The notes: generated from the letters alone by a model not told the origin. A stretch of 64,000 nt of DNA from a virus (IMGVR_UViG_3300028887_000068:160001-224000); one strand, 5' to 3'. Counted from the first letter of the stretch, positions 4,832-63,384 are shown. Program-made: numbers and translations.

Positions 4832-4844
4832 AACTAGAAAATGG
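4832..4844 (+). promoter_or_regulatory. AACT-class phage promoter (AACTagaaAATGG) upstream of recombinase
   Basis: Matches recurring motif; between terminator and gene. Confidence 0.55.
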
Positions 4845-4930
4845 CCGAAGTACTGCGTCATCGACGTATTGCGGACAGCTACAGTTCACTTACTCAACAA
4901 TCAACAAACATCTAACTAACAGAGGTTACT

Positions 4931-6187
4931 ATGTCTCTTATGTCCAAATTCCGTGAAAAGACTATGGGTGCTCAGCGCAAGGGTGAGTATTTCAAGGATC
5001 ATGCCATCCCGACTGGCTTCACGCTCATCGACCTTGCTAACGGTTGTATCGATCAGGAAAATAACTGCTTTGAAGCAGGTCTTCGTACTGGTCGTATCTT
5101 CTCCGTTTGCGGGTTCTCCGGTTCTGGTAAGTCTACGCTTATTGCGCAGCTCACATTCCCGATGGCGAAGCAATTCGAGAATGCTGACGTCTTCTGGTTC
5201 GACGCTGAAAAGGCTGCTAACGGTAAGTCCCGCTTCATTCAGCTTTACTGCGGTCATGACAAAAATCCGGAATTGCTCCAAAAGTTCTACGAACAGGTTC
5301 GCATAGAAAGTGAAAACACTTATCTTGACAACCTTGCTGAGTTCATCAAGGAAACGCACGATTTCAAAATGCAGCATCTTGAAGAACTCACCGAAGAAAT
5401 TGTGGGCTACGACGGCAAGAAACATCAGGTTCTTGCTCCGACAATTATTGCGGTTGACTCGTTGGCTGCTACATTCTCCAAGTCTTCTTCTTCCAAGGCT
5501 GAGGATGACGGCGAATTGTCGAATAAGACAGCTGGCGCACAGCAAGCCATTGAAAACAATGACTTCATGCACAAGTCTCTGAACATGCTCTATTCTGCGA
5601 ATATCATGATCGGGCTTGTATCTCACTTGAACACAAAACCCACTATGGGTACACCTGAAGTTTCTAAGATCCCGTTCCTCCCGCCTAACGAAAATATCAA
5701 GGGTGGTTCCGGCCCGGTGTTCGATGCCGACTTCAGTGCCAAAATCTTTAAAGGAACAATTCTCCATGCGGAAAAGGACTATGGCTTCGACGGTTTCGTC
5801 AACTATATCCAGATTTTGAAATCGCGCTCTAATGTGGCTGGTCGCAAGTACCCGTTGGTATTTGACAGTACACACGGTGGTGTCTATGATAATCTCTTGT
5901 CTAACGTACAGTTCTTGTATGAAACAGGCGATATTAAAGCTGCTGGCCCGTACAGCGTGTTGAACTCTCTGCCTAGCGTCAAGTTCACTAAGAAGACGGT
6001 TCGTGAAGTGGTTGCACAACACCCGGAACTCGGTGATGCTATTGAAGCAAAGGTTATTGAGATCATGACTGGCAAGATGTACCATTGCCCGATTGTCACA
6101 ACGGATTCTACTGTCTCTGTTGAAGAAGCACAGAAGATCCAAGCGGAAATGGGCACAAAGGTTACGAACGCTGCTGAAGCTAAGTAA
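4931..6187 (+). CDS. uvsX: RecA/UvsX-like recombinase
   Basis: IPTGF..IDLA.G, Walker A GFSGSGKST, FDAEKA, IIAVDSLAA, IKGG motifs. Confidence 0.85.
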   Translation: MSLMSKFREKTMGAQRKGEYFKDHAIPTGFTLIDLANGCIDQENNCFEAGLRTGRIFSVCGFSGSGKSTLIAQLTFPMAKQFENADVFWFDAEKAANGKSRFIQLYCGHDKNPELLQKFYEQVRIESENTYLDNLAEFIKETHDFKMQHLEELTEEIVGYDGKKHQVLAPTIIAVDSLAATFSKSSSSKAEDDGELSNKTAGAQQAIENNDFMHKSLNMLYSANIMIGLVSHLNTKPTMGTPEVSKIPFLPPNENIKGGSGPVFDADFSAKIFKGTILHAEKDYGFDGFVNYIQILKSRSNVAGRKYPLVFDSTHGGVYDNLLSNVQFLYETGDIKAAGPYSVLNSLPSVKFTKKTVREVVAQHPELGDAIEAKVIEIMTGKMYHCPIVTTDSTVSVEEAQKIQAEMGTKVTNAAEAK

Positions 6188-6193
6188 ATTAAA

Positions 6194-6226
6194 TAGAGTA
6201 TCCCCTTGAGGGATACTCTATATTTT
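6194..6226. terminator. bidirectional terminator
   Basis: tagagtatccc-cttga-gggatactcta between convergent genes. Confidence 0.8.
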
Positions 6227-8164: not shown

Positions 8165-8542
8165 TTAACATTCGCAGGAGGATTGCTCACCCGGGCCACG
8201 AGTAATATCTTTGAAAACTTTACAGCACGTTCCGTCCTTGTTGACGAAATAAATCAGACCAGCGATATCCGTAGAATCATGGAATGTTCCTGCGGTAACT
8301 GGGATCTTTGTTCGATCGAAATGTTTGGGAAATGAAAGAGCCTTACAGCCCTTTCGCCGAAGAAGAAATGCACCAAAGCAGTTCAGTTCTCGCTCAGTCA
8401 GACGAATCACACCTCTATATGGAAAGCTCCCTACGATTTGTCTTTTTCGTCTTTCCCAGTATCTAGTCTCAATATCCGCAATGGATCCAGACTGTGCTGT
8501 AGAAGTGCTAGCACTCAAAGAATTCTTGCATCCACAAGCCAT
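8165..8542 (-). CDS. Cys-rich hypothetical late protein (MACGCK...SSCEC)
   Basis: GAGG RBS and AACT-N4-AATGA promoter directly upstream of ATG 8542. Confidence 0.7.
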   Translation of the reverse strand: MACGCKNSLSASTSTAQSGSIADIETRYWERRKRQIVGSFPYRGVIRLTERELNCFGAFLLRRKGCKALSFPKHFDRTKIPVTAGTFHDSTDIAGLIYFVNKDGTCCKVFKDITRGPGEQSSCEC

Positions 8543-8556: not shown

Positions 8557-8590
8557 TCATTATAGAGTTATCCATCGAACTTATGATTGC
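8557..8590. promoter_or_regulatory. divergent AACT-class promoter pair
   Basis: AACTctatAATGA (-, 8557-8569) and AACTtatgATTGC (+, 8578-8590), 8 bp apart. Confidence 0.75.
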
Positions 8591-8627: not shown

Positions 8628-8885
8628 ATGTTTATGCGATTGTTAGATCTAGTGAGAGAGACTAGAGCAGCACTAGTGCAGAAGAGAGTTTACGCCCGTA
8701 TGGAGAGACATGGGTTGTCTGCAACCGTTCTCGTGTGGGAACTTGATGGAGACAAGAGACTGAAGTTTGTAGGCGAGTCCACAGTGGACGCTGAAACAGT
8801 CTGTACAAAGAAAGAAATTGAAGAAAAAGCAAAGTTGATACTCGAAGAAAAGCATATTCATGAATACAAGCTTGAGGTGTTCTAA
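8628..8885 (+). CDS. hypothetical protein coupled to DNA polymerase
   Basis: AAGGAG RBS before ATG 8628; TAATG overlap with polymerase. Confidence 0.7.
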   Translation: MFMRLLDLVRETRAALVQKRVYARMERHGLSATVLVWELDGDKRLKFVGESTVDAETVCTKKEIEEKAKLILEEKHIHEYKLEVF

Positions 8886-10822
8886 TGACATTTAAGGAAT
8901 CTTACATCCAAACAGTTTGCAAGCTGTACAACACTCTGACGAACAGAGTGGCTCCACCAGAGTTTATCAAGGAAGTGGAAGCTCTGTATGATACAGCCAT
9001 TGTGAACACCAAGAGCCAGAATGAGCTTATCATTCACAACCCTGAAAAGCACACTGTGCAGGAAATCCAGACCGAAGAAGTGCTGGATATGGTGTACTCC
9101 GGTGATTATACCATGAGCGCTTACGGCGTATTGGTTGACTCCTATGCTCGTAATCCGTCTCCATTATCTGACTTCCTTATCTTCTTACAGGAAATGCGTA
9201 AGAAAGAAAAGAAGCTCAAGTTCGAGCATATTAACGACGTTGACAAGTTCATCATGCTTATCCATGACAAGATGCAGCTCTTGTTCAAGCTCGTTGGTAA
9301 CTCGGAGTACGGCGGTGCAGGTGAACGCAACTACATTCTCGGATCTCCGAATACCGGGCCGGGTACTACTTACAATGGTTTTGCTATCATTACATCTACG
9401 ATTTACTTCGTAGAATCCCTTATGGAAGGCAACTTTTGGTTCTTCTCTACTGACGACGCTCTCCGTTATATCGAGGAAGTCCGTCTTCACACTGAAAAGT
9501 ACCCTGAAACCATTGCTTCTTATGTCGATGAAATGATCGACAATTGGGAGATTGTCTATGACGAACTCTGCAAGCACATTGCAGAAGACGCAGATTTCTC
9601 CCACTTGACTCTCAAGGCAGCATTACAGAATCTCGATTCCGAAATGCTTACCAGAATCTTCTATACGAACAACATCTACAGATTTCTTGAACAGAAGGCT
9701 CAGATGGCTGTGCTGTCTAACACTTTCTCTACGTCATTCCGCGATCCTAACACACCGCCGGATGACATCAAGGAACAGATGACGACGATCAATGACAGAA
9801 TCCGCCAGTATGTGGCTCATCCATATATTCACTGGAACCGTGCCGAGATTGTGAAGAACCTCAAGAGAAAGAGTATTCTCGTAACTGACACTGACTCGGT
9901 ATTTTGCCTTCTTTATAATTTCATATTATTCTATGAGGATAAGTTCTACAAATCTGTCGAACAGGATGATGAAGCACGTATCTCTATAGCAATGATTGCC
10001 AACAATATTCTTGGGCAGCAATTACAGGCTATATTGGATGCTGTGACGGGAGGCCTGTCGGTGGATAAGAGATTGATGCCAAGAATCAACATGAAGAGTG
10101 AATTCCTCATGAAGAGATTGGCACTTACTCGCAACAAGAAGAACTATTCATCGATTACTCTTGTGCAAGAAGGAAAGGTGCTTACACCACCTGCTTTTGA
10201 TGTCAAGGGATTACCGATTAAGAAAAGCTCGACAAACAGAATTGCGAGAAATTATTTCTCTGACCTACTCGAGAACCAAATACTCAAACCGAAGGAAGTC
10301 AGTCCGAGGGAAGTACTTCAGGGTTACATGCGTTTTGAAAGAGAAGTGTATACTTCTTTGAAGGAACGCCGTGACACTGTGTATCTGACTCCTGGTAAGT
10401 ACACTTCGTGGGGTGCGTACAAGGATCCTACCAAGAATTCTACAGTACGTGCTGTAACGATGTGGAACACGCTCAATCCGAATGACAAGATACAAGACTA
10501 CTCGAGAGTGAATCTCATCCCGATAAGGGAAGTGAAGAACTCGGAAGGATTCGCATATCTTAAGGAAATAGATGAGCATCTTTACGAAAACGCCATCAGG
10601 ATATTTGAAGAGAATGCTCAGATGTTCCGGTCTTCTGGTGTGAAGGCGATTGCACTTCCTAAGAAGAAAAAATCGATCCCGGAATACCTCCTACCGTTGA
10701 TCGATACGGACAAAATAGTGGAGGCGAACTTGAAAAGTGCTTATACTATCATGGAAAGCATCGGCTTCGTGCTGTTGCCTAATGGTAACTCTAAACACTT
10801 CTCCTCGTTCGTAGACTTATAA
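8885..10822 (+). CDS. family B DNA polymerase, catalytic C-terminal subunit of a split jumbo-phage polymerase
   Basis: Motif B QLLFKLVGNSEYG, motif C TDTDS, KKNY, DVKGL; no exonuclease or motif A recognisable. Confidence 0.85.
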   Translation: MTFKESYIQTVCKLYNTLTNRVAPPEFIKEVEALYDTAIVNTKSQNELIIHNPEKHTVQEIQTEEVLDMVYSGDYTMSAYGVLVDSYARNPSPLSDFLIFLQEMRKKEKKLKFEHINDVDKFIMLIHDKMQLLFKLVGNSEYGGAGERNYILGSPNTGPGTTYNGFAIITSTIYFVESLMEGNFWFFSTDDALRYIEEVRLHTEKYPETIASYVDEMIDNWEIVYDELCKHIAEDADFSHLTLKAALQNLDSEMLTRIFYTNNIYRFLEQKAQMAVLSNTFSTSFRDPNTPPDDIKEQMTTINDRIRQYVAHPYIHWNRAEIVKNLKRKSILVTDTDSVFCLLYNFILFYEDKFYKSVEQDDEARISIAMIANNILGQQLQAILDAVTGGLSVDKRLMPRINMKSEFLMKRLALTRNKKNYSSITLVQEGKVLTPPAFDVKGLPIKKSSTNRIARNYFSDLLENQILKPKEVSPREVLQGYMRFEREVYTSLKERRDTVYLTPGKYTSWGAYKDPTKNSTVRAVTMWNTLNPNDKIQDYSRVNLIPIREVKNSEGFAYLKEIDEHLYENAIRIFEENAQMFRSSGVKAIALPKKKKSIPEYLLPLIDTDKIVEANLKSAYTIMESIGFVLLPNGNSKHFSSFVDL

Positions 10823-11613: not shown

Positions 11614-11650
11614 TCCCCTTGGAGTAATCCAAGGGGGTTTTTATTTTTTT
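11614..11650. terminator. bidirectional terminator
   Basis: ccccttgga-gtaa-tccaagggg + T-tract. Confidence 0.85.
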
Positions 11651-13130
11651 AGTATGTGAGCGTGTACAGAGCTTGTACTGGCTCAGAACCGATCTTTCTG
11701 GATACGCCACCAGTAAGGTCAGTTATATTTTTTGGTGAGTAGATGTACTTCTCGATCTCGGCATTAGCTTCCTTCGTGAAGAGCATCTTGATAACGACGG
11801 TATCGCCATCGAAGTCAGCATCCATAGCCTTAAGGACAGCCGGATGAAGCTGTGCTGTATCATTCCATTTCACCGGGGTCACAGAAAAATCCGGATAGAA
11901 CGGATCATCACCGATCTTCGTAGTGGCCTCGGTTGTGATAATCACCGGACGATGGCAAGATACGTTACGGTAGTCTTCAAGCGGATAACGAGTGACCAGC
12001 ACATGCTTGTCCTTGATTGCTTCCTTAGTGATATAATAAAGGATGTCGGTATTGTTGATAGGTCTACCGAGCTCACCGAAGAAGCCGAAGTCCTTGAAGT
12101 CTAGCGGTTTGCCATCGCTCTTGAGGATGAAGAACGGCTCTGTACGGAACTCTCTGGTACGGGCGTAGTTGGCTATAAAACGCTCTGCGTAGTCCGTGGA
12201 GAGCGACTCAAAGGCAACCTGAGTGTACTTCCCGTGGCTCTCTTCGACCAGATAGTAGTCCTCTCCAAGCTCGTTGAAGAGCGCCTTGAACTCGTAGGAA
12301 ACGAACGGAAGAGCAAGAGCAGCCATCTGGTATAGAGGAATACCGACTTCTTCGAACTTGATCATCGTATCTTTGTATGTCGGAGCTGCTGCAATGTGTT
12401 CAGCTGAGATAACAGCACGAGTAGTGTAGTCGATGTTCTTACCAAGCATTGTAGCATGGATGAGGCCATTCTTCTTAGCGATCTTGCCGATGAAGTAATC
12501 CATGATCTGAACGAGCTGTTCTTGGATCTTGCCTTCAAGAGCATAGGTAGTGAAGAATCCGCCTTCATTCTTGAGTGACTGGCATTTAGAGATCAAACCA
12601 ACATACATATCACCAATCTCATCGATGGAGATACGAGAGAGTTCCTTGGTGAAGTTTATGTCATAATAGAAAGCCGGAACAGTAATCCACTTAGTACAGA
12701 AGATTTCATTGCGCTTATAGAGCTTCAGGAGCTCAATACGGTTAGAACGAGAACGGTTGTTACGGTCATCGAACTTGATCTTATCCCAGTTCGAATAGAG
12801 CCATTCAATTCCGGTGCCACCTTTTTCGTCTTCAAGGAGTTCACCCCTTGAAGATACGGAAAAGTTTTTGGCTCCAGTAACAATAGCAGAAGCTTGAGAA
12901 CAAATTCGGCTGAATTCTTTATACGCCAATGGGTGCATAAAGTGTCTTCCGAGATCGATGTAGGCGTACTGAAGCTTACGTCTCTTGGAACCCGGTCTGC
13001 CATAGATCTTATAAGAGAAGATACCGTCATCCGTCGGTGTCTTATCGGCATTGATGTATACCGGATTAGACACTTCGGGAAGCTTATTCTTCTCGATGAT
13101 GGCATCGATATCTGCTATTTCAATCTTCAT
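11649..13130 (-). CDS. RNA polymerase beta' N-terminal/catalytic subunit (probably virion RNAP)
   Basis: DGIFS.KIYG, AYIDL..HP, MLGKNIDYTTRAVIS, RYP, catalytic HP...MDADFDGD. Confidence 0.9.
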   Translation of the reverse strand: MKIEIADIDAIIEKNKLPEVSNPVYINADKTPTDDGIFSYKIYGRPGSKRRKLQYAYIDLGRHFMHPLAYKEFSRICSQASAIVTGAKNFSVSSRGELLEDEKGGTGIEWLYSNWDKIKFDDRNNRSRSNRIELLKLYKRNEIFCTKWITVPAFYYDINFTKELSRISIDEIGDMYVGLISKCQSLKNEGGFFTTYALEGKIQEQLVQIMDYFIGKIAKKNGLIHATMLGKNIDYTTRAVISAEHIAAAPTYKDTMIKFEEVGIPLYQMAALALPFVSYEFKALFNELGEDYYLVEESHGKYTQVAFESLSTDYAERFIANYARTREFRTEPFFILKSDGKPLDFKDFGFFGELGRPINNTDILYYITKEAIKDKHVLVTRYPLEDYRNVSCHRPVIITTEATTKIGDDPFYPDFSVTPVKWNDTAQLHPAVLKAMDADFDGDTVVIKMLFTKEANAEIEKYIYSPKNITDLTGGVSRKIGSEPVQALYTLTY

Positions 13131-13143: not shown

Positions 13144-13156
13144 CTATTGAAGAGTT
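13144..13156 (-). promoter_or_regulatory. AACT-class promoter (AACTcttcAATAG)
   Basis: Immediately upstream of RBS of RNAP beta' N gene. Confidence 0.65.
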
Positions 13157-13815
13157 CACCACTTTGGGAGGAAGCTCTTTATAGTAAGCTTGGAATCCTG
13201 AAGATTCTGTGCATATCCTTCCATGATAGCTTTGTTGTAGCCAAACTCAGGGAAGGCAATGTACTTGGACTGATTCTTAAAGCGTTCAGCCACGTCAAGC
13301 AAGCACATTGGATTGTCGTCAACAAATGTATCGAAGTCTGGGAAGTTCTTCTCGATGTAAGCACCCTTGGACTCCTTGAGAGGGAGTTCAACATACTCGT
13401 AATCGAGCATACCAAAATTCTTTTTTACCCACTTCTCCTTGGACTGGTTGCAGAGACCGTCAATGACATGGGTAAGGAAGATGAGCTTATTACCAACACC
13501 TCCGGAGATAAGCGAAGCACCGAAGCTAGACAACGGAAGATCATCATAGAACTGACCGTTCTCCGTATAAGACTTGTAGAAGAGGTCTGCTACAGTATCG
13601 CTGATACCGAGGAACTTGATAAGATCGTAGAATGGTCTGGAAAAGACTTCGGAGAAGAAGAGATTGTGGTCATAGGTGCTTTCAAGAGCGATGTTGAGTC
13701 TCTCAGTACGCTTCATGATAGCAGGGTGTTGCATAGCCGACAGAATCCACTTCGGGGCCATATACACAATTGTATCGTCAATGTCGATGATTTGGATCTT
13801 GGGTTTCTTTATCAT
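13156..13815 (-). CDS. HAD-family 5'(3')-deoxyribonucleotidase-like protein
   Basis: IDIDDT motif I, FLT, K..W, FVDDNP, GYNK. Confidence 0.75.
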   Translation of the reverse strand: MIKKPKIQIIDIDDTIVYMAPKWILSAMQHPAIMKRTERLNIALESTYDHNLFFSEVFSRPFYDLIKFLGISDTVADLFYKSYTENGQFYDDLPLSSFGASLISGGVGNKLIFLTHVIDGLCNQSKEKWVKKNFGMLDYEYVELPLKESKGAYIEKNFPDFDTFVDDNPMCLLDVAERFKNQSKYIAFPEFGYNKAIMEGYAQNLQDSKLTIKSFLPKW

Positions 13816-14437: not shown

Positions 14438-15145
14438 TTAGTCATCGAGGAAGCCGAAGAGGGCAGATTCGTACTTGAGGTCGTCATCAGCACCGTCGCC
14501 GTCACCGAGACCCACGACTTCTTCGTCGCTGTCCTTGCCTTTCTTCTTGTTTTCATCATCGTCGTCACCCGTTTCATCCGGATTCTTGGCATCATCTTCC
14601 GGATCGGCAGCAGCCGGAGCAGCAGCGATTTCATCATTGAAGACATCGTAGAATTCTTCAGAGGATGCAAAGGCTTCGTCTACTTCATCAAACTTGAAGC
14701 ATTCATCGCCGTCCTTGACATTCTTGGAAGCGTTGTCAGACTTGTCGTCCTTATCGTCATCCTTCTTGTCATCATCTTTCTTATCATCCTTGTCGTCGTC
14801 GCCCTTCTTGTCTTCGTCATCGTCTTTCTTATCATCCTTGTCGTCGTCATCTTTCTTCTTGTCGTCCTTATCCCCGTCACCCTTGTCGAGATCAGAGATA
14901 TCGGCCTTAGCACCGTTCTTGGCATCGTCTTCGATGTCATCGTCAGCGTCTGCGAGGAAAGCCTGTTCGTCGAAGTTGAAGTTTTCGAAAGCGAGAGACT
15001 GGCAAGACTTGCCACATTCTTCAGCGTTTTCCGGATCCTTTTCTTTATCCTTGTCCTTATTTTCTTCTTCATTGAAGAGGTGCATAAGGTCGAGGTCGTT
15101 GTGTTCTTCAGAAGCGAAGATATCGTCAATACTGTTGACTGCCAT
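14438..15145 (-). CDS. highly acidic low-complexity late protein (possible prohead core/scaffold)
   Basis: D/K repeat tract; AAGGAG RBS; perfect late motif upstream. Confidence 0.7.
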   Translation of the reverse strand: MAVNSIDDIFASEEHNDLDLMHLFNEEENKDKDKEKDPENAEECGKSCQSLAFENFNFDEQAFLADADDDIEDDAKNGAKADISDLDKGDGDKDDKKKDDDDKDDKKDDDEDKKGDDDKDDKKDDDKKDDDKDDKSDNASKNVKDGDECFKFDEVDEAFASSEEFYDVFNDEIAAAPAAADPEDDAKNPDETGDDDDENKKKGKDSDEEVVGLGDGDGADDDLKYESALFGFLDD

Positions 15146-15200: not shown

Positions 15201-15247
15201 AAGTTGAAATTTCCCCGTGCAATTTGGAGAAATTTCAACTTTTATTT
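15201..15247. terminator. terminator hairpin
   Basis: aagttgaaattt.cc...gg.gaaatttcaactt inverted repeat. Confidence 0.7.
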
Positions 15248-16500: not shown

Positions 16501-16946
16501 TTACCTCCGGCTTTCTTTACTGGTTTGGCGTTCTTGTTGATAATCTTGAAAGCTTGTCCATAGATAGACTTTGTCTTGTACTTTTCATCAATCACAAAGT
16601 CATAGTCAACCTTGCCTCTGTCTTTCTTGGGAGTGTTAATCATCGCATAACAAGCTTCCATTTTCCACTTTACGCTGTTCACAGCATCATAGGCAGGAGT
16701 AAACATGTGGTCATGTCTGTTTTTGTATGCCGTAAGAAGCTTAGCATACTGGTCTTTCAGCCACTTGTCGTCATCCTTATGTTCCTTAAGAGACTTGAAG
16801 AACATCTTGCAACCAAGCCATGTACTGAAATTCCAAAATCCATAGTACAATCCTATCACTACCCCTGAGAGGACGTCAGTACCAATCATCGTTGTGGAAT
16901 TGTAACTGAAGTCTAAGTCTTCGGGTTTCAACAACTTTTCCGCCAT
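16497..16946 (-). CDS. hypothetical late protein with hydrophobic segment
   Basis: GAGG RBS; promoter at 16955-16967. Confidence 0.7.
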   Translation of the reverse strand: MAEKLLKPEDLDFSYNSTTMIGTDVLSGVVIGLYYGFWNFSTWLGCKMFFKSLKEHKDDDKWLKDQYAKLLTAYKNRHDHMFTPAYDAVNSVKWKMEACYAMINTPKKDRGKVDYDFVIDEKYKTKSIYGQAFKIINKNAKPVKKAGGK

Positions 16947-16954: not shown

Positions 16955-16967
16955 TCATTCATGAGTT
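16955..16967 (-). promoter_or_regulatory. AACT-class promoter (AACTcatgAATGA)
   Basis: Consensus match overlapping RBS, after terminator. Confidence 0.75.
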
Positions 16968-19815: not shown

Positions 19816-19850
19816 GCAATGATAAGTTACGGGCATAAACTTATCAATGA
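19816..19850. promoter_or_regulatory. divergent AACT-class promoter pair
   Basis: AACTtatcATTGC (-, 19816-19828) and AACTtatcAATGA (+, 19838-19850), 9 bp apart, near-perfect inverted repeat. Confidence 0.8.
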
Positions 19851-20802: not shown

Positions 20803-20836
20803 AAATAGAGAGAGATCTTGCGATCTCTCTATTTTT
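20801..20836. terminator. bidirectional terminator
   Basis: agagagatc-ttgc-gatctctct between convergent genes. Confidence 0.8.
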
Positions 20837-36613: not shown

Positions 36614-36626
36614 TCATTGTAAAGTT
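36614..36626 (-). promoter_or_regulatory. AACT-class promoter (AACTttacAATGA)
   Basis: Consensus match. Confidence 0.75.
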
Positions 36627-42577: not shown

Positions 42578-42590
42578 ACAATTTGGAGTT
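42578..42590 (-). promoter_or_regulatory. AACT-class promoter (AACTccaaATTGT)
   Basis: Downstream of terminator 42601-42627. Confidence 0.65.
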
Positions 42591-50608: not shown

Positions 50609-50654
50609 TCGAGAATATAAAAACCCGTATCTTGCGATACGGGTCTTTATTACT

Positions 50655-54827: not shown

Positions 54828-54888
54828 AATTGGACTCCTTGTATTTGCTAAAGTTAATATTCATAAGACATTTATGAAATATCGATGC

Positions 54889-54901: not shown

Positions 54902-54958
54902 TCTGGAAGGATGATAAAATTGATAGTTTCTTCCTGAGTAAAATTCAGACTGCTGAGA

Positions 54959-54970
54959 GTATATTAAACT
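54959..54970 (+). promoter_or_regulatory. putative early promoter GTATATTAAAC
   Basis: Directly before GAGG RBS of small membrane ORF. Confidence 0.55.
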
Positions 54971-54983
54971 ATGAGGTAAGATT

Positions 54984-55275: not shown

Positions 55276-55318
55276 AAAAAAAAAATAAGTGGTCTATACA
55301 ACCACTTATTTTTTTTTT
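55276..55318. terminator. bidirectional terminator
   Basis: A-tract, taagtggt...accactta, T-tract. Confidence 0.85.
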
Positions 55319-56048
55319 AACAGTGAATGACTTTCTCGAACGGAGAGTCAATACCCTTGATGCCCTTCTTTCCGGCTACACAACCCACAGACACAGCTGA
55401 GGTAACATCTTCGAATGCAATACCGGAGAATGTTGAGGTAACTCTCGGTAATTCCTGAATTCGGATGTTCGTATAGTCAGAATCAGAGCCAGTTCTACCA
55501 GCGATCTTACGATACGGAGTATAGATGTCTTTAGAGCTTCGACACATTTCCCCGATCATAGCTTCAGTAACCGACATAGGCACACCCAAGGCAGTGCCAT
55601 TGAGAGATGACACTTCTTTCAGGAAGTTTGCGATATCGGAGTACTTCAGGTTATCAGGGAGCTTACCGCCAAGCAGGAAGTTCAGGAAGAGTTCAGAGTT
55701 CTTTCCGTTCTGCACATTGAGAGCTTCTTGGAACATGACAGAATTACCTTTGATGGTAAATGCCATGTACTCATCCTCTTCGTGAGTACCCTTGAATTTT
55801 TTCTTCTCTTTTCTAGATTCAGCAAAGGGAATAGTAAGCTTCAAAGGGCAATCAAGCTGCCAGAGTTCCGGCTTGGATGTAGGTGTCTTGTAAATCTCAA
55901 TGAAAATGAATCCTATGGTCTTAACCAGTTCGCCTTCGACAACAGAGATTCTCTCATTATCGAAGAAGTACAGAGGGACGTACACCACAGCTTGCGGAGC
56001 TGTAAGATAGTAGTCATTCTCAACACGTTTCAGAAATGGTAATGCCAT
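55317..56048 (-). CDS. RNA polymerase beta' extreme C-terminal fragment (probably virion RNAP)
   Basis: SVTEAMIGEMCR..TSTFSGIAFEDVTSAV....VAGK......E.VI aligns with bacterial beta' KHIEVIVRQM..SFISAASFQETTRVL..AVAGK..LKENVI and with the C-terminus of 20835-22643. Confidence 0.65.
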   Translation of the reverse strand: MALPFLKRVENDYYLTAPQAVVYVPLYFFDNERISVVEGELVKTIGFIFIEIYKTPTSKPELWQLDCPLKLTIPFAESRKEKKKFKGTHEEDEYMAFTIKGNSVMFQEALNVQNGKNSELFLNFLLGGKLPDNLKYSDIANFLKEVSSLNGTALGVPMSVTEAMIGEMCRSSKDIYTPYRKIAGRTGSDSDYTNIRIQELPRVTSTFSGIAFEDVTSAVSVGCVAGKKGIKGIDSPFEKVIHC

Positions 56049-56063: not shown

Positions 56064-56076
56064 TCATATTGGAGTT
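56064..56076 (-). promoter_or_regulatory. AACT-class promoter variant (AACTccaaTATGA)
   Basis: Occupies the short intergenic gap before RBS. Confidence 0.6.
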
Positions 56077-56951
56077 TACTTAGATTCGCTGACATACTGG
56101 CCGAGGAGCTTATCAAAGTCTTCGACAGCATGGGCGAATTCTTCAACGATGCTCATATCAAGACGTTCGAAGACATCTTTCGGCAGGGATCTAGAAGCCA
56201 TAGCAGCCACGGAAATGGTACTGAGAGTCTTTGCCAAACCCTTGACGAACTGTCTGGAGTCATAACCGCCGAGTTTGTGGCAGTAATTGGCTACAGCGAT
56301 GGCGAAGCAACGATAGAGAGATTCCATCGGAGTCTTCACACAGAAGCGAAGAGCAAGGAGAAGATTCTTGAATGCTGGCTTACCAAGAATTTCGTCAACG
56401 TACTTGACAGAGGCTTCGAATTTGTCCTTATCATTCCATACGTTGACGATAGCAGACGGACGGACATTTTCTTCTTCGAAGAAGCCCATCGTCACTTTCT
56501 TCAGCGTAATGCTTTCTTGGAACTGGATATGGTTACGGTGAAGCTTCTGGAATTCGATCTTAAGCTTGTTCTTAAGGGAACTCTTACGCTTCGAGCCCTT
56601 GTATTCCTTCATCTTTTCGTTGATGAACTTATCGAGACCAACGGCATACGGTTGTGCAAGGAAGGCACGGGAGACCTTATGGGCAAGATTGAAACCCTTG
56701 AGAGTTTCGCCAACGAGAGCCACAGCAGCAGCTTCACGCATGGCAGCAGCTTCTTCCTTTTCATCCTTTCCGCTAGCAGATTCCATGATCTCCTGAGCTT
56801 TGTCAAGAGCGATGGTTTCATCTTCGCTCATCTGAGAACGGAGTTCAGCGTTGTCCTTAGCAATTTCTTCGGTTTTCTGTTCAAACGAGTTGATAGCTTC
56901 AAGAGCCTGTTCAGCTTGTTCTTCAATTTTCGGTTCCTGAGTTTCGCTCAT
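56076..56951 (-). CDS. hypothetical helical protein with acidic N-terminus
   Basis: AGGAG RBS, biased codon usage. Confidence 0.75.
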   Translation of the reverse strand: MSETQEPKIEEQAEQALEAINSFEQKTEEIAKDNAELRSQMSEDETIALDKAQEIMESASGKDEKEEAAAMREAAAVALVGETLKGFNLAHKVSRAFLAQPYAVGLDKFINEKMKEYKGSKRKSSLKNKLKIEFQKLHRNHIQFQESITLKKVTMGFFEEENVRPSAIVNVWNDKDKFEASVKYVDEILGKPAFKNLLLALRFCVKTPMESLYRCFAIAVANYCHKLGGYDSRQFVKGLAKTLSTISVAAMASRSLPKDVFERLDMSIVEEFAHAVEDFDKLLGQYVSESK

Positions 56952-56959
56952 GGTTACTC

Positions 56960-57778
56960 CTATTGATTTTTGATAGCGATCTCGCTCAACTGTTGGTATA
57001 CAGAGAGCGTAATTAAATGCTTTGCTTCAATGTTAGATTGATCATTCACAGATTTGATAAGGGAATCAAATGCTGTCGGAAGCACAACCAGTTCCAACTT
57101 ATCAAGAAGAATAGCGTTCTGCCATTCGTCTTCATTGTCGGCACAGTAGACTTCGAGTTCCTTGTAGAAGTCCGTAGAAGCGGTGGTTCCTTCAATCACG
57201 TCATTGACGACATCTTCAAGACAGTCAAGCAACACGAGAAGACCTGTATCTGTAGCCCCAGTATACTTCTTCTGTGCGCCGATATTCTTTCTCGAAGACT
57301 TCGATTTATATGTATTTATGAATTCCTTCTTGTGTTTGAGAATGGATTTCACGATGTAGTTAGCCAGACCTTCCTTGCGGTTAATAACAAGGAACGAGTA
57401 GAAAGCTTGAACTAGATCGGCGAAGTCAGCTCCACTTCCTTCAGTGCTACCGAAGGCATTGCTAGCTGCATCGATCCCAAAGAATTCCTTAAACTTGGTG
57501 AGAAGCCTGATGCGGATGTCATAAAGGTATTCCGTAAGGAAGTTAGCCTTATCGGTGCATCCTTGTTCTCTGGCTCTTTCCCTGAGAGCCATCACAGTGT
57601 TAGTAACGGCTGTAAGGGCATCCTCCTGAGTTTCGGTAGGAATCTTCTTCAGATCGTCCATCTGCTGAAATAGTCTCTCTTCAAGAGCCAACACATTGTC
57701 GTCCATTCGGAACTCTGAATTCCCTGTTCCGAACTCAAGATCTTCTGTATCGGTCATTAAATCGTTGTACTTGCCCAT
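56960..57778 (-). CDS. hypothetical protein downstream of terminase
   Basis: AAGGA RBS and promoter 57800-57812 inside terminase 3' end. Confidence 0.75.
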   Translation of the reverse strand: MGKYNDLMTDTEDLEFGTGNSEFRMDDNVLALEERLFQQMDDLKKIPTETQEDALTAVTNTVMALRERAREQGCTDKANFLTEYLYDIRIRLLTKFKEFFGIDAASNAFGSTEGSGADFADLVQAFYSFLVINRKEGLANYIVKSILKHKKEFINTYKSKSSRKNIGAQKKYTGATDTGLLVLLDCLEDVVNDVIEGTTASTDFYKELEVYCADNEDEWQNAILLDKLELVVLPTAFDSLIKSVNDQSNIEAKHLITLSVYQQLSEIAIKNQ

Positions 57779-59723
57779 AGAACGTATCCTTCATGGTTTT
57801 CATTGAAAAGTTCGGCTCATTCCCGAAATTGAGAGAAAAGATCTTCCTCATTTTCAGGTCGTCGTGAACCACGTTTTCTTCAGAGCTAATGATATGTTCA
57901 GTGATTGTCGTCATCTTCTCTTCCGGTACTGCAACACTCTTGCGTTCCCTGAGAGACGATGCACAGACTCTTCGCTTAAACATCTTAAAGCTATCGAACG
58001 ATGCGGCATATCTGCCGATGAGCATGGACATAAGGAAGTCGTCATGAGCGCCGTTAGAATGTTCAACCTTTCCGTTGCTCTTGCGTTCCAGTGTCTTAAG
58101 CTCTTCATAGGTGAATCTAGACCGGATTGTATGCGGTTCTTCTTCAACATACATGAACAGATTAGCAATCATGATATCACGAGATCCGGAAGTAGTGTCA
58201 ATACCGTAGACCTTCTGTACCTTGTTACCCTGTCCTGGGATCGGGTTATTGATAGTACGATAGAAGACTTTATTGGCAGTGACAGAACTCTCGAGCAATG
58301 TCGTAATCACGTCTAGACCATAGCTGTTTCTTTCAACCACTAAGAGCGAGTTATAGAACAGGTTACGGACTACTTCAATCAGAATTCTAGCAAACGGGAT
58401 TGGGTTAATCCTATTCGAAGAGAAGTAACCCTTCTCGTGGAAATCATCAATATCAAGCATATGAATGACAGAGAAGTCAGTGCCGACACCACCGCCAACG
58501 TCAACAGAGAGGATGACAGGATCATGGAAGTCCACTGGTTCAAGCATAGTGAACTTGTGGTTTCCTTGGTCTCCGATTCTAAGATAGGTCTCTTGTTCCT
58601 TACGGACAACAAAGTTGCTAACCCTTTCAAGACAGTCTTCGGTGAACGGAGACTTATCGGAAGAGAGCGTCCATTCAAGGTCAACTTCACGCTTAATCTT
58701 CTGTCTATCGTACTGAAGATCACGGCACTGCTGTTCGTACCACTTTTCATCACGACCGAGTTCTCTCCATGTGAATTCAATGTGGACGAAGTTATTGGTA
58801 GATCTTTCGTAGACATAATCCCTAAGCTTGTCAGCCGGAACGTCATACATTTCTTCAGTAAAGTCACAAGCAGCTTCAATAAGGTTATGCTTAGCCCATC
58901 CGCCTTCATCAGTATCGATAGAGTTCGGCGTAGTGGTAAACATCTTGAAATGAGGCACACCATTCTTCTCAGCTTCGATAGCAGCCTGAGATACAGCCGG
59001 AGCAGCAGCTGCATAGATGATGTTATTATATTTGGCGAACGCAATTTCATCGAAGAACCAGCACGGCATCGTAAGACCACGACCAAGCTTGTCTGCTTCT
59101 TCAGGGGATGTAGCAGCTGGCATAGCCGTGATTATATTCTTCAATAGCTTGTTACGAGAGAAAGTCGTAGAAGATTCTTGGTCTTCTCTGGACTGCTTCG
59201 GTTCAATCATCCATGCCGGAATCAATTCAACGATGTTCTTGAATCTCTTAAGGTTCACTTGTGCATCGCCATATTTCTTGTTCATGAACGTTGACTGCGT
59301 GTTTTTTGTTCCGAAGAAAAATAGCCAAGAAAATAAAGACACAGCACCGATGGTCTTACCGTGTTGACGAGGCATCAATGTGATCGTGTCTATGTTATGA
59401 AGGCTCATGTAAGTCAGAGCAAGGTTTCCGCGATGGAGATTATAGGGGATAGAGCCACCCGGAACAGGAATTCGTACTACCTCTCTAAAATAGTACCAAG
59501 GATTTATCTTGCACTCCGTAATTATTCGAGCCTTTATCTCTGTAGAAAGTCCTTCAGCTCTAGGATCAACAAATCTTAATCCTTCATCATACAATGCTAA
59601 GAAAAACTTGTTGTTCTTGATTCCTTTTTCCTTCAGGTATTGGTGCATCTGAAGGAAGCTGGTATTTTTAGTTAGCTGGTAGGATACTTTCCGTTGAGTG
59701 AGATCGGAAAGTTGTGCTGCCAT
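57735..59723 (-). CDS. terL: terminase large subunit
   Basis: Walker A MPRQHGKT, Walker B WFFDEIAF, TTTP, RNase H-fold VDVGGGVGTDFS, VERNSYG, HDDFLM. Confidence 0.92.
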   Translation of the reverse strand: MAAQLSDLTQRKVSYQLTKNTSFLQMHQYLKEKGIKNNKFFLALYDEGLRFVDPRAEGLSTEIKARIITECKINPWYYFREVVRIPVPGGSIPYNLHRGNLALTYMSLHNIDTITLMPRQHGKTIGAVSLFSWLFFFGTKNTQSTFMNKKYGDAQVNLKRFKNIVELIPAWMIEPKQSREDQESSTTFSRNKLLKNIITAMPAATSPEEADKLGRGLTMPCWFFDEIAFAKYNNIIYAAAAPAVSQAAIEAEKNGVPHFKMFTTTPNSIDTDEGGWAKHNLIEAACDFTEEMYDVPADKLRDYVYERSTNNFVHIEFTWRELGRDEKWYEQQCRDLQYDRQKIKREVDLEWTLSSDKSPFTEDCLERVSNFVVRKEQETYLRIGDQGNHKFTMLEPVDFHDPVILSVDVGGGVGTDFSVIHMLDIDDFHEKGYFSSNRINPIPFARILIEVVRNLFYNSLLVVERNSYGLDVITTLLESSVTANKVFYRTINNPIPGQGNKVQKVYGIDTTSGSRDIMIANLFMYVEEEPHTIRSRFTYEELKTLERKSNGKVEHSNGAHDDFLMSMLIGRYAASFDSFKMFKRRVCASSLRERKSVAVPEEKMTTITEHIISSEENVVHDDLKMRKIFSLNFGNEPNFSMKTMKDTFYGQVQRFNDRYRRS
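57800..57812 (-). promoter_or_regulatory. AACT-class promoter (AACTtttcAATGA), intragenic
   Basis: Consensus match 22 bp upstream of ATG 57778. Confidence 0.7.
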
Positions 59724-59783: not shown

Positions 59784-60515
59784 ATGAGTACAGGCAAAAG
59801 AAAGAAGGTCGAAGACCTCGTGTACAGCGTGATGGATGCCCTAGACAAGACTGGTGAAAACACTGACAAGTATCGCAAGATGTTCAACAAGATGAGCGAT
59901 ACTCAGTTCAATACTTGGATGAGCAAGTTCTTGTCGGATCCTACAGCCAACTTTAGACTTGAAGTTCTCCCTCATAAGAACGAACCGGAATTCGACCAGA
60001 TAGAGAAAGCCCTGAAGATTCTCAATATTCCGCTAGAAGAATATGTCTATTTTCGTGACCAGAAGGATACTAACGGTAATCCGGTCAGAACAGCTACCCG
60101 TGTTCCGGTGTTCTATCTTTCCATCAAGCGATTGGAGCAGGTCGTTACCCATAAGTCTGGTGTTACTCTCGACATTGATAAGAGAAACCAGCTTACTGGT
60201 ACTGTGACTTCTGACTCCAAGGTCGCTAGAAACTCTGACGTGGAATCCTACGCTCTGTTGCTTCAGCAGAATGAAGACTCTATGAAGGAATTGAATGGTG
60301 CTCGAAGCGACAACATGGGTGCTAAGAGAGTTCTCTATTCTAAGATTCAGGCTGACGGATTCGTTAATCTGAAAGATGTCGAAGAAGGTTCTTCTGCATT
60401 TGAAAAGGTTGCCCTCAATACCTTCGATGCTTATATGCTTGGAGCTGGTGTCAAGACCGATACCATTACGGATTCCAATCTGCTCCCAGTGTCTCTTATC
60501 CCAGACATTGACTAA
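59784..60515 (+). CDS. RNA polymerase beta extreme C-terminal fragment (probably virion RNAP, phiKZ gp149-like)
   Basis: PVFYL.IKRL.Q...HK, R..LTG.V, R.SDVE..AL, EL..ARSD, F..Y..G.G correspond to the beta C-terminal clamp/switch region. Confidence 0.75.
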   Translation: MSTGKRKKVEDLVYSVMDALDKTGENTDKYRKMFNKMSDTQFNTWMSKFLSDPTANFRLEVLPHKNEPEFDQIEKALKILNIPLEEYVYFRDQKDTNGNPVRTATRVPVFYLSIKRLEQVVTHKSGVTLDIDKRNQLTGTVTSDSKVARNSDVESYALLLQQNEDSMKELNGARSDNMGAKRVLYSKIQADGFVNLKDVEEGSSAFEKVALNTFDAYMLGAGVKTDTITDSNLLPVSLIPDID

Positions 60516-60516: not shown

Positions 60517-60549
60517 AAAAAATTCAGTATACTTGCGTATACTGAATTT
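60517..60549. terminator. bidirectional terminator
   Basis: aattcagtatac-ttgc-gtatactgaatt. Confidence 0.85.
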
Positions 60550-60553
60550 AATT

Positions 60554-63349
60554 TTACGATACGAACTGGATGAAGATATCGTTCTCTTTCTTGAGGGAAC
60601 GGCTTTCATTCAATACACCAAGGTTCACAGTCGGGAAAGACGGAACGAAGCCAGTGTTGCTCTGTTCACTATCCAACAGTGTCTTGTAATCAGGATCCGG
60701 CACGATGTACTTGACATGGTCGATCCCATTGATAGACTTGATGTTGATTGAATCACAGTCCGTAATCTGATTCTCCAATTCCTTGAGAAGATTGCTAAGA
60801 GAGATTCTCTCGGTGATGAGGACATTATTGTACACGAGATTGAACAACTGCTCAGTCCAATCTCTGACAATAGTGGAGATCTTCTTTTCCACTTCCTCAT
60901 CGTAACCGTTCTGACGGTCAACAACGATCTCGTAATACAGGTTCGGTTTGTAGAACTTCTGTACTTCCGTGGCTGAATCTTCTGAAGTCTTGAGCAGTTG
61001 TGCTCCCCAGAAGTTCGTACGCCCGTAGGTATTGAAGAATTTAATGTTGAGTCTGGTGTTGTTATGCAATCTCTTAGCAGCATTACGGATTGCTTCGATA
61101 ACACTCTTAAAGAGAGTCATAAAGCTATCGTAGACAGAGTTAGAGAAGAGCATACGACCACCGACAACCGGAAGCATATAGAGACATCTTGCACTGTCTT
61201 GTACGGTTGTTCCGATGGTAACAACATCGTTAAGGTTTTCGAAGAACTTGAAACCGCCATTGATAGTGCTAATAGACTTCAGACGGTACTCATTGAGACC
61301 ACGAGGGGCTTCAGAGCTGCTATTGATAGCACTAAGTTCCTTGTATTCGTTCTTATTGTCGTCGATGAGGTTGTTCTCATCTATCGGCTCCATGCAGTAG
61401 ATGAAAGCTTCGGCATTGCTAAGGAAAGAAACATTCTCCAATGCAGACCACTTGCCATTGGAATCGTAAGTAGCATAGAACTGGTTTAGACCCTTGCTCT
61501 TTACGCTCATAGTGTACTTTTCGTCGCTTTGAATACTGCCAATCTCAACAGTCGGGATAGCACATTCGAAACATCCTTCATCTTCGTTTCTCTGCATTTC
61601 AATGGCTACAAGCTTGTCGTTGGAGTCCTTGACCATAAGGAAATATCTGTTACGGGCAAGTTCACCTTCGGTCACATAAGCGTAGACATTAATAAGCTCA
61701 CCGAGCGCAGGATTCCTCTTAGCCTTAACATAGTTCACGATCGGTGTATCGACAGATTCTGAAGTGAGTGTCTTGATATAGACAGAGTAAGTCTCATCAA
61801 CATTTTCGTCAAACACATAAGTATGAACCGTATCTCCGCCGTTGTCTACATAATAAGAAAATGGTGAGAAATAGATGAACTCATTGCGATCAAGCAAACA
61901 TTCCTTAATGTCTTGTATTGGGTTCGTTTCATCAATGACTTTTCCCACAGTAAGGAAGTGTTCTTCATCCACCGGAGTAGAGCTGTGCCTGTCTTCATAG
62001 CGAATAGGCATGTATGGAAGAATCTTTACTAAGGTTGTTCCATCTTGAGAAGGCGGGATCTTTACATACGGGATAGTATTAGTTTCATACGTACAAGTAT
62101 CATCGGACATCATACAGAAGGCATTGAATTCACGGGTGATGATATCATCACGTTCTTTGAATACGATAACCTTCGTCTTTTCATTTCCGACGGAGGTACT
62201 AGCAAAATACTCGTTAAGGTCATTCTCAGATCCGAGAAGCTTTGCTCTAGTTCTATTGGTATAAATGTCCTTCTTGTGGGTCATCAGAGAATCTTCGTCA
62301 GATCCACCTGCCGGAGAAGAGAACACCCAAGAAGAAAACTCAGAAGCATAGTCAACCTTGTCTATACTGATAGCAGGAGTACCCTTAAAAGTGAAGTTAC
62401 CTGCTTCGCCGTCGGTAGTAGCAACAATGAATCTAAGGTTCGTTCCATTATTCGGAATGTAAGATCTGTCGCCACGACCAAAGTAAAACAATACGGTATC
62501 GCTGTCAAGTCTCTTCAGGAAGACACTCGGATCTTCACCTGCGCTCTTCAGAGCCGATGTAATGATCTTCAGTTCACTCCATTCGAAGCTATCATTGACA
62601 CGCTGAAAGGCTGTAGCACCGACATACTTCCTTCCAAAATCAATCATGTATTTACTGATACTGGAGTTCGAGGTATCGGTATACACGTCCTCATGGTATT
62701 CATAGATGACGTTAAAGACTACAATGGAAAAAGAAATCATCGTAGCTTTTCTGGTGTCATCATAGTATTCCTTAATCGGAACATAGAAGTTGCTCTTGAA
62801 GTCGTAGACCGTATCGAACAGCGGTGTTTCGCTTGTGATAGTCATACTTCCATTAGTGATAGGAACGCTCTTATAGAGACCACGAACACCATTGGCATTA
62901 CGGCTGAAGATAAGAGAATACGGAAGTCTGAATTCCGTTTCGTCTAACTTAACAAGGAAGTCTTCTCTGTCAATGGTAAGCCAACCGTTCTCATTAGCAT
63001 CAATGAGGCTGAGAAGCTTAGCCTTTTCAATTTCCATGATGATGGTACAAGAAGCCGGACGAGAAGCCTTGAGTTCAACGCCTTCAGATTCAGCCGTGTT
63101 ATAAATGGTAGACGGCATCATGGCGGTATTAAGGAAGAATTCGTTGAAGAGCATGTTTCTGTGGAACTGTGCGCTCTTAGACGAATGGGCGGCTATCTCA
63201 GTGAGATAGCCGAACATACCAAGCTTATTGGTTTCGTTAGTACCCGGAACCTGTGTGAAACACTTCTCGGCAAGCTTCATGAAAGCTTCCATAAATCCAT
63301 ACTGGTCATTACTTATTGTATTGAGGGCAGCATCAACTTCATTTGCCAT
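60554..63349 (-). CDS. baseplate wedge protein (T4 gp6/baseplate J-like)
   Basis: NE.FLNTA..PS.I...A, FG.G...IP, TTDGEAGN, AGGSDEDS motifs. Confidence 0.75.
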   Translation of the reverse strand: MANEVDAALNTISNDQYGFMEAFMKLAEKCFTQVPGTNETNKLGMFGYLTEIAAHSSKSAQFHRNMLFNEFFLNTAMMPSTIYNTAESEGVELKASRPASCTIIMEIEKAKLLSLIDANENGWLTIDREDFLVKLDETEFRLPYSLIFSRNANGVRGLYKSVPITNGSMTITSETPLFDTVYDFKSNFYVPIKEYYDDTRKATMISFSIVVFNVIYEYHEDVYTDTSNSSISKYMIDFGRKYVGATAFQRVNDSFEWSELKIITSALKSAGEDPSVFLKRLDSDTVLFYFGRGDRSYIPNNGTNLRFIVATTDGEAGNFTFKGTPAISIDKVDYASEFSSWVFSSPAGGSDEDSLMTHKKDIYTNRTRAKLLGSENDLNEYFASTSVGNEKTKVIVFKERDDIITREFNAFCMMSDDTCTYETNTIPYVKIPPSQDGTTLVKILPYMPIRYEDRHSSTPVDEEHFLTVGKVIDETNPIQDIKECLLDRNEFIYFSPFSYYVDNGGDTVHTYVFDENVDETYSVYIKTLTSESVDTPIVNYVKAKRNPALGELINVYAYVTEGELARNRYFLMVKDSNDKLVAIEMQRNEDEGCFECAIPTVEIGSIQSDEKYTMSVKSKGLNQFYATYDSNGKWSALENVSFLSNAEAFIYCMEPIDENNLIDDNKNEYKELSAINSSSEAPRGLNEYRLKSISTINGGFKFFENLNDVVTIGTTVQDSARCLYMLPVVGGRMLFSNSVYDSFMTLFKSVIEAIRNAAKRLHNNTRLNIKFFNTYGRTNFWGAQLLKTSEDSATEVQKFYKPNLYYEIVVDRQNGYDEEVEKKISTIVRDWTEQLFNLVYNNVLITERISLSNLLKELENQITDCDSINIKSINGIDHVKYIVPDPDYKTLLDSEQSNTGFVPSFPTVNLGVLNESRSLKKENDIFIQFVS

Positions 63350-63371
63350 ATCAGCCTCTTGAATGATTTTT

Positions 63372-63384
63372 TCATTAGAAAGTT
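63372..63384 (-). promoter_or_regulatory. AACT-class promoter (AACTttctAATGA)
   Basis: Consensus match after terminator 63404-63421. Confidence 0.75.

Follow-up and report, generated by a model that had tools for sequence, protein, structure and literature searches.

An AACT-N6-TG motif of an uncultivated jumbo phage as the probable promoter of an AR9-type non-virion RNA polymerase with altered specificity

The 64 kb stretch of DNA analyzed here (IMGVR_UViG_3300028887_000068:160001-224000, hereafter the window) comprises bases 160001-224000 of a single-contig IMG/VR virus record, the genome of which is 242,489 bp in length (guanine-cytosine content 43%, CheckV completeness 94%). A short bipartite motif, AACT-N4-A(A/T)TG, stands ahead of many of its genes and reads 5'-A(-11)ACT(-8)-N4-A(-3)W(-2)T(-1)G(+1)-3' on the non-template strand. 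It is very probably the promoter of the phage's own non-virion RNA polymerase (nvRNAP), an enzyme of the type described in Bacillus phage AR9, with a specificity that has changed at positions -8 and +1. The motif is enriched, oriented towards genes, strictly spaced, partitioned by gene class and conserved in a relative, and a cognate enzyme is encoded in the same genome. An earlier reading of the window (the sequence-only reading) had proposed the promoter of a related phage RNA polymerase (RNAP) with altered specificity, and this proposal is supported by the enzyme, the motif geometry and the partition of gene classes.

In AR9, the mapping of 94 start sites gave a late promoter consensus of 5'-A(-11)ACA-N6-T-A/G(+1) on the non-template strand (PMC5312081). 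The nvRNAP holoenzyme reads the template strand, 3'-UUGU-N6-AU/C-5', and needs deoxyuridine at -11/-10 and G at -9, with almost no preference between U and T at -8 (PMC7598289, PMC9209446). Its specificity subunit is gp226, in which V206 of the 2.1bis helix clashes with the methyl group of thymine at -10, and a V206G variant accepts T (PMC9209446). The AR9/PBS1 late promoter and the gp226-containing nvRNAP are also covered in PMC5449584.

Frequency, orientation and spacing of the motif

Genes were predicted with a simple heuristic caller of our own, based on codon usage and ribosome-binding sites, which gave 265 genes (91.7% coding) and left an intergenic share of 8.6%. The exact 13-mer AACT-N4-AATGA is found 14 times in the window, compared to 1.23 copies expected by chance (100 shuffles, with a largest shuffle count of 5). 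All thirteen exact copies listed in the sequence-only reading are present, in the right place and on the right strand, and the fourteenth, missing from that list, is intragenic (31456-31468, minus strand). Across the whole genome, 30/32 exact 13-mers are intergenic, and for the relaxed form AACT-N4-AWTG, 60 of the 67 copies are intergenic and 53 are aimed at a start codon no more than 100 nt away. A weight matrix refined on the motif sites (cut-off at least 10 bits) returned 99 matches genome-wide, with 82 intergenic and 75 aimed at a start no more than 120 nt away. In the window, 24 matrix sites are intergenic, and together with the site at 57801, a 7.9-bit site at 41885 and a variant with a 5-nt spacer at 31850 they make up 27, in agreement with the earlier estimate of about 27 copies upstream of genes.

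Orientation is equally strict. In tandem intergenic regions, 52 sites are co-oriented with the downstream gene and none is opposed (p=4e-16), as expected of a motif described as always aimed at a gene, and no matrix site occurs in any of the 26 convergent regions. The putative +1 lies a median of ~20 nt from the start codon (10th-90th percentile 14-78), and the motif stands 9-30 nt ahead of most start codons. Between AACT and TG, the N6 spacer alone is enriched (72/139 intergenic), and spacers of N4, N5, N7 and N8 are at background level, bar a few sites of the weakly enriched N5 class. Among the 82 intergenic matrix sites, the base counts are A 82/82 at -11, A 81/82 at -10, C 82/82 at -9, T 80/82 at -8, A 73/82 at -3, A or T at -2 and T 79/82 at -1, followed by G (76/82) or A (6/82) at +1 and A-rich positions at +2/+3.

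RNA polymerase subunits

A search for a subunit resembling AR9 gp226 or phiKZ gp68, suggested by the sequence-only reading, revealed a gp226 homologue along with all four other chains of the AR9 nvRNAP:

Window 32469-34361, minus strand: nvRNAP betaC (PDB 7S00_C, E=6e-113; Rpb2_6 domain)
Genome 68737-70224: nvRNAP betaN (PDB 7S00_c, E=6e-65)
Window 20835-22643, minus strand: nvRNAP beta'C (PDB 7S00_D, E=2e-62)
Genome 143503-144882: nvRNAP beta'N (PDB 7S00_d, E=2e-44)
Genome 76781-78217: gp226 homologue (PDB 7S01_A, E=1.4e-12)

The gp226 homologue was assigned by blastp/phmmer matches to the AR9 protein and also by fold, while Pfam returned nothing for it. Its predicted model (mean predicted local distance difference test score 73) has AR9 gp226 as the best solved structure (7S01_A, E=1.6e-11, template modelling score ~0.5), and the next match is phiKZ gp68 (8QUE_B, E=1e-5). 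A second, paralogous set of subunits corresponds to the AR9 virion RNAP, and is encoded at window 11649-13130, genome 51962-56542, genome 117477-118706 and window 59784-60515.

Other candidates for nvRNAP chains were rejected. The gene at window 37324-38775, considered for beta'C, is annotated in AR9 as a superfamily 2 (SF2) helicase, and that at genome 149427-151043, considered for beta'N, as a homing-endonuclease-like gene. For gp226, genome 73287-75038 encodes a GroEL-like chaperonin and genome 60157-61539 gave no PDB match.

Two promoter classes and their genes

An enrichment scan of upstream regions returned a second motif, tG-TATAT(T/A)A-N6-G, with ~61 intergenic matches genome-wide and a geometry that matches the AR9 early promoter ...TATATTAT-N6-G (PMC5312081). 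The two motifs mark different genes. Transcription units with AACT sites only hold 18/20 virion, virion-RNAP and packaging genes (by the AR9 annotation of their orthologues), and the early-type motif is found at 5/5 nvRNAP subunit genes, at three of them exclusively and at two along with an AACT site (Fisher p=4e-4). Within the AACT class, the AATG and ATTG sub-variants did not separate virion from replication genes. As analyzed here, the partition follows the logic of AR9, by which the injected enzyme would make the second enzyme, and the second would transcribe the rest.

Some early-type promoters outside the window (genome 42127, 102616, 224763, 4598 and 122824) are followed by a conserved leader, approximately (G)ACCTTAACCATAA(A)GGA, that continues into the Shine-Dalgarno (SD) sequence.

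Occurrence in AR9, other phages and uncultivated relatives

As a positive control, AR9 was rebuilt from the phage collection and run through the identical pipeline. AACA-N6-TA was recovered (84/274 intergenic, 65 co-oriented near starts) and AACT words were at background; AACA-N6-TA/TG words were in turn at background in the present genome. An unbiased scan, in which all 4,096 words of the form 4-mer-N6-2-mer were scored in co-oriented upstream zones, placed AACT-N6-TG first in the present phage (64/139, z=31) and AACA-N6-TA first in AR9 (z=19), BpSp (z=20) and phiR1-37 (z=21), while Staphylococcus phage S6 gave no clear AACA-type word. With a looser anchor, AAC-N7-TR, the present phage has T at -8 in 75/94 sites, G at +1 in 73/94 and A at -3 in 68/94, compared to A at -8 in 79/99 and A at +1 in 81/99 sites of AR9. 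In phiR1-37, for which no late consensus has been reported (PMC4848604, PMC5312081, PMC7598289), 56/189 copies of AACA-N6-TA lie in upstream zones and +2 is G in 63/92 sites, that is, AACA-N6-TAG.

IMG/VR was searched with the gp226 homologue, which yielded a close relative, G001 (UViG_3300031992_000008; 84% gp226 identity), and the distant G002 (UViG_3300028832_000002) and G003 (UViG_3300028833_000057), both with ~30% gp226 identity. AACT-N6-TG is again the top word in G001 (z=25.5). Among orthologues shared with this relative (median 67% amino acid identity), a site is kept at 50/57 genes that have one in the present phage versus 3/57 genes that do not, and the flanks of the sites are 40-55% identical. 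G002 and G003 carry AAC(A/T)-N4-ATTG (37/38 and 26/29 intergenic, respectively), with mixed A/T at -8 and G at +1. The phages compared form a series, from AR9, BpSp and phiR1-37 (A at -8, A at +1) to G002 and G003 (A or T at -8, G at +1) to the present phage and G001 (T at -8, G at +1).

The nvRNAP betaC orthologue of G002 is in two pieces (66745-67815 and 69122-69922) with a gap of ~1.3 kb and a stop between them. This split may reflect an intron or homing-endonuclease insertion, which are common in AR9 RNAP genes.

Proposed transcription scheme and points against it

From homology to AR9 we infer that the template strand is read, that transcripts start at G, that nvRNAP is the enzyme concerned and that the DNA contains uracil. 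In the scheme proposed, tG-TATAT(T/A)A-N6-G would serve the injected virion RNAP as the promoter of early genes, among them those for all five nvRNAP subunits. The split beta and beta' subunits and the gp226-like specificity subunit would then assemble into an nvRNAP holoenzyme that recognizes the template complement 3'-(U/T)(U/T)GA-5' at -11 to -8, as AR9 reads 3'-UUGU-5'. Initiation would occur at the G six bases downstream of AACT, without a -35 element and with leaders of ~20 nt, and the replication, virion-RNAP, packaging and structural genes would be transcribed in this way.

Several points weigh against this scheme. AACT sites also occur at the nvRNAP beta'N and gp226-like genes, and AACT sites drive most replication genes; 'middle plus late' therefore describes the class better than strictly late. 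The residue corresponding to V206 of gp226 is Leu in the present phage and G001 only, and Val in AR9, BpSp, phiR1-37, S6, G002, G003 and L076. In betaN, R363 is conserved and K375 aligns to Thr beside a one-residue gap; together with Leu206, this indicates a -10 pocket that would not be identical to that of AR9. The 2.1bis segment of the gp226-homologue model is of low confidence, the gene caller made at least one wrong assignment in the window (57017-57415), and promoter function and the start site both rest on analogy with AR9.

Uracil in the DNA

The predicted gene content is that of phages with deoxyuridine-containing DNA. ThyA, ThyX and dUTPase were not found in the genome, and the same holds for AR9, BpSp, phiR1-37 and S6. 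A protein of the dCMP-deaminase (Dcd) family is encoded at genome 97212-97748 (minus strand) and a homologue of the AR9 5'(3')-deoxyribonucleotidase (Dtm-like) at window 13156-13815 (minus strand), the latter assigned by blastp/phmmer matches to the AR9 protein, with nothing returned by Pfam. Dcd and Dtm activities support the synthesis of deoxyuridine DNA in PBS1 (PMC12697855), and the AR9 deoxyribonucleotidase is presumably the orthologue of PBS1 Dtm.

It is possible, although rather unlikely, that Leu206 of gp226 and the altered betaN pocket have retuned the -10 pocket to give an nvRNAP that does not need deoxyuridine or reads another modified pyrimidine. If true, this would be an AR9-type, template-strand-reading polymerase working on thymine DNA, a new contact would recognize the exclusive template A at -8, and the series from AR9 (A) via G002/G003 (A or T) to the present phage (T) would record how the promoter specificity of a multisubunit RNAP evolved step by step. 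No link is claimed between V206L and the switch at -8, because G002 and G003 keep Val and yet accept T at -8, and because residue 206 of AR9 gp226 contacts the base at -10, not -8.

Alternative explanations

An element acting in RNA, such as a processing site, a 5'-leader or a translation element, would also be expected to show strict co-orientation with genes and to lie 9-30 nt from most starts. Such an element is nevertheless very improbable. The sequence-only reading had described the motif as often following a terminator, and a hairpin with a T-tract is indeed present within 60 nt upstream of 31/82 sites (38%), compared to 11% of random intergenic positions. Thirty sites lie in divergent regions as back-to-back pairs, where no upstream transcript would carry them. 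The distance to the SD or start codon varies from 9 to ~100 nt, and the geometry is that of the proven DNA promoter of a homologous enzyme (PMC5312081). The ATG/TTG of the motif was rejected as a start codon, since only 15/76 could be read in frame and without a stop into the gene that follows.

Equally hard to sustain is an exchange of the two classes, with the virion RNAP reading AACT-N6-TG and the nvRNAP reading TATATWA-N6-G. The assignment of enzyme to promoter is not direct for the present phage, and both motifs are strongly gene-associated. However, the nvRNAP genes must precede nvRNAP, and all five carry TATATWA-N6-G (three exclusively), while AACT is the motif of the virion-RNAP and structural genes. 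Each motif also resembles, in sequence and spacing, the AR9 motif of the class proposed for it (PMC5312081).

The host RNAP, directed by a host or phage-encoded sigma-like factor, is a similarly poor candidate for the reader of the AACT motif. In its favor, AR9-like phages also encode small helix-turn-helix or sigma-like proteins. Nevertheless, TTGACA (-35) and TATAAT (-10) boxes ~17 bp apart are missing: information content between -61 and -14 peaks at 0.18 bit, and therefore a -35 element is absent, as the sequence-only reading had noted. Expression in AR9 and phiKZ is independent of host RNAP (PMC7598289), and the motif co-varies with phage lineage.

Least likely of all is a regulator binding site or a replication or packaging signal unrelated to initiation, for which nothing specific speaks beyond the motif being a short conserved intergenic word, and which is at odds with ~80 asymmetric copies that each face a gene whose start lies a fixed short distance away, are absent from convergent regions and share the strict bipartite spacing of a known promoter.

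Promoter sites in the window

The putative promoters of the window and the genes downstream of them are given below. Sites are of the late type (AACT) unless stated otherwise, and bit scores refer to the late-type weight matrix except where marked early.

4832..4843, plus strand: AACTAGAAAATG, ahead of the UvsX-like recombinase gene 4931-6187; 10.6 bits, intergenic and co-oriented, noted as the weakest listed, with a long leader
8558..8569, minus strand: AACTCTATAATG, gene 8165-8542 (minus); 17.7 bits, exact, back-to-back with the 8578 site
8578..8589, plus strand: AACTTATGATTG, genes 8628-8885 and DNA polymerase B 8885-10822 (plus; divDNApol/DNA_pol_B); 13.4 bits
13145..13156, minus strand: AACTCTTCAATA, a +1 A variant, virion-RNAP beta'N-like gene 11649-13130 (minus; 37% identity to AR9 virion RNAP beta'N, Rpb1_2 domain); 11.7 bits
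13829..13840, minus strand: AACTAAAAATTG, Dtm-like nucleotidase gene 13156-13815 (minus; blastp 9e-8 to AR9 5'(3')-deoxyribonucleotidase); 18.9 bits
15173..15184, minus strand: AACTTCTCAATG, gene 14438-15145 (minus); 17.4 bits, exact
16956..16967, minus strand: AACTCATGAATG, genes 16497-16946 and virion-protein homologue 15247-16497 (minus); 15.0 bits, shortest leader class, SD from +2
19817..19828, minus strand: AACTTATCATTG, SbcD 18597-19799 and DnaB 17011-18597 (minus), orthologues; 10.5 bits
19838..19849, plus strand: AACTTATCAATG, virion structural homologue 19873-20802 (plus; AR9 gp280 virion protein); 16.1 bits
26132..26143, minus strand: AACTTTATATCG, a variant, genes 25511-26116 and SbcC 22731-25514 (minus); 14.3 bits
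26161..26172, plus strand: AACTTTATAATG, gene 26192-27085 (plus); 19.1 bits
31172..31183, minus strand: AACTTCATATTG, head maturation protease homologue 30387-31151 (minus; AR9 protease); 16.5 bits
31850..31862, minus strand: AACTATAAAAATG, 5-nt-spacer variant of the weakly enriched N5 class, gene 31308-31829 (minus); intergenic, start 20 nt away
36615..36626, minus strand: AACTTTACAATG, gene 35604-36599 (minus); 18.7 bits
38788..38799, minus strand: AACTAAACATTG, SF2 helicase 37324-38775 (minus; AR9 helicase); 15.4 bits
39632..39643, minus strand: AACTTCCTAATG, gene 39124-39618 (minus); 17.3 bits
39657..39668, plus strand: AACTAGTTAATG, gene 39700-40119 (plus); 10.4 bits
41885..41896, minus strand: AACTCCTAATTG, weak late-type site, gene 40182-41858 (minus); 7.9 bits, intergenic and co-oriented
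42579..42590, minus strand: AACTCCAAATTG, gene 41943-42551 (minus); 11.1 bits
49694..49705, minus strand: AACTTCATAATG, virion structural homologue 46728-49673 (minus; AR9 gp259); 17.8 bits
50597..50608, minus strand: AACTTCACAATA, a +1 A variant, gene 49750-50583 (minus); 12.0 bits
54890..54901, minus strand: AACTCTAAAATG, tail sheath 50655-54827 (minus; AR9 tail sheath); 15.3 bits
56065..56076, minus strand: AACTCCAATATG, virion structural homologue 55317-56048 (minus); 13.8 bits
57801..57812, minus strand: AACTTTTCAATG, within the 3' end of the terminase gene, 22 nt ahead of open reading frame (ORF) 56960-57778 (minus); 19.5 bits
59740..59751, minus strand: AACTACCTATTG, terminase large subunit 57735-59723 (minus; AR9 terminase); 15.2 bits
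59759..59770, plus strand: AACTCAATAATG, gene 59784-60515 (plus), homologue of AR9 virion-RNAP-associated gp077 (51% identity); 20.1 bits
63373..63384, minus strand: AACTTTCTAATG, gene 60554-63349 (minus); 18.3 bits
34410..34433, minus strand: early-type, ..TAGTATATTA-N6-G, upstream of nvRNAP betaC, with no late-type site there; early matrix 14.1 bits
22673..22696, minus strand: early-type, ..TGTATATAA.., upstream of nvRNAP beta'C, with no late-type site there; early matrix 10.2 bits
3082-3105 (plus), 37303-37326 (minus) and 54954-54977 (plus): further early-type examples

Five late-type pairs are divergent and back-to-back (8558/8578, 19817/19838, 26132/26161, 39632/39657 and 59740/59759). 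The 12-mers of a pair are 7-17 bp apart, and two initiation complexes would therefore overlap.

Phage affiliation and gene annotation

Judged by protein similarity, the source virus is an uncultivated jumbo phage distantly related to AR9/PBS1. A megablast search of a 7-kb stretch against GenBank phages gave zero matches, and there is therefore no close sequenced isolate among these. The beta-like RNAP subunit has counterparts in Bacillus phages AR9, PBS1 and Internexus (36% identity), Yersinia phage phiR1-37 (35%) and Staphylococcus phage S6 (31%), a group in which uracil DNA has been shown or is presumed (cited papers). Only 57/265 predicted proteins have blastp matches in AR9, and the phage would thus represent a deep branch of the AR9/PBS1 group.

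At the misassigned locus, a 272-aa ORF (56960-57778, minus strand) shares 44 nt with the 3' end of the terminase gene; the caller had discarded it on account of this overlap and placed a weak plus-strand ORF (57017-57415) there instead. Opposite real genes such as those for the tail sheath and UvsX, the antisense strand is free of stops over very long stretches (shadow ORFs of up to 1,416 aa), and in these pairs coding scores and homology favor the strands named as genes:

50601-54851, plus strand: shadow ORF opposite tail sheath 50655-54827 (minus)
4916-6142, minus strand: shadow ORF opposite UvsX 4931-6187 (plus)
56130-56966, plus strand: shadow ORF opposite gene 56076-56951 (minus)

The GroEL-like chaperonin gene (genome 73287-75038, minus strand; PDB GroEL matches down to 2.6e-27) is close to those for the gp226 homologue and the primase, an arrangement also seen in AR9.

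Comparison with known promoters

No multisubunit RNAP other than the AR9 nvRNAP has been shown to recognize its promoter via the template strand (cited papers), and knowledge of the mechanism is based on one enzyme-promoter pair. Natural variation in the present phage and its IMG/VR relatives affects the two positions that are understood least, -8, which contacts the beta' lid in AR9, and the start-site element, the structural basis of which awaits determination (PMC9209446). Among the gp226 homologues compared, those of the present lineage (the phage and G001) are the only ones without the uracil-selecting valine. Since a simple word scan recovers late promoters in the present phage, AR9, BpSp and phiR1-37, regulon maps of uncultivated jumbo phages should be possible from sequence alone.

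Like the AR9 late promoter, the motif begins with AAC (-11 to -9), has a spacer of strictly 6 nt, ends in T (-1) followed by a purine (+1), and favors A at -3. Both are without a -35 element, stand ahead of late and virion genes, and are accompanied by a complete orthologous five-subunit enzyme. AAC, the counterpart of the template 3'-UUG-5' that fills the AR9 pocket, is invariant here (81-82/82). The likeness in geometry claimed by the sequence-only reading is borne out; its statement that AR9 reads AACA on the template strand is not, as AACA-N6-TA/G is non-template notation and the enzyme reads 3'-UUGU-5' (PMC9209446). Nor is the difference from AR9 limited to one base, as had been stated. 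Where AR9 has A at -8 (79/99) and A at +1 (81/99), the motif has T (80/82) and G (76/82), respectively; of the promoter positions, AR9 reads -8 least stringently (PMC9209446), a purine is kept at +1 with the preference reversed, and +2/+3 are A-rich. Further differences are the Leu at position 206 of gp226, proteins only 23-37% identical, and a motif with sufficient information content for sequence-only discovery. Since both the A at -8 and the V206 of the reader are missing, the predicted promoter departs from the AR9 type and is a natural specificity variant rather than a plain member.

The early-type motif, tG-TATATWA-N6-G, has an AT-rich block and N6-G spacing like those of the promoter from which the AR9 virion RNAP transcribes early genes, AAATATATATTAT-N6-G (PMC5312081), and marks another gene class than the AACT motif. 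The late promoter of phiKZ, 5'-T(-3)ATG(+1), read by an nvRNAP with gp68 (PMC7598289), has a similar xxTG ending at a G start site and a structurally related specificity subunit. A TATG promoter of the phiKZ type, which needs each of its four bases, was rejected, as -3 is A in 73/82 sites, in contrast to T in phiKZ, -2 is A/T, and the obligatory upstream AACT has no counterpart in phiKZ. G002 and G003 are alike to the present phage in AAC-N5-ATTG-type words and G at +1, and unlike it in the mixed -8 and the retained Val206 of gp226; their sequences suggest a state intermediate between those of AR9 and the present phage.

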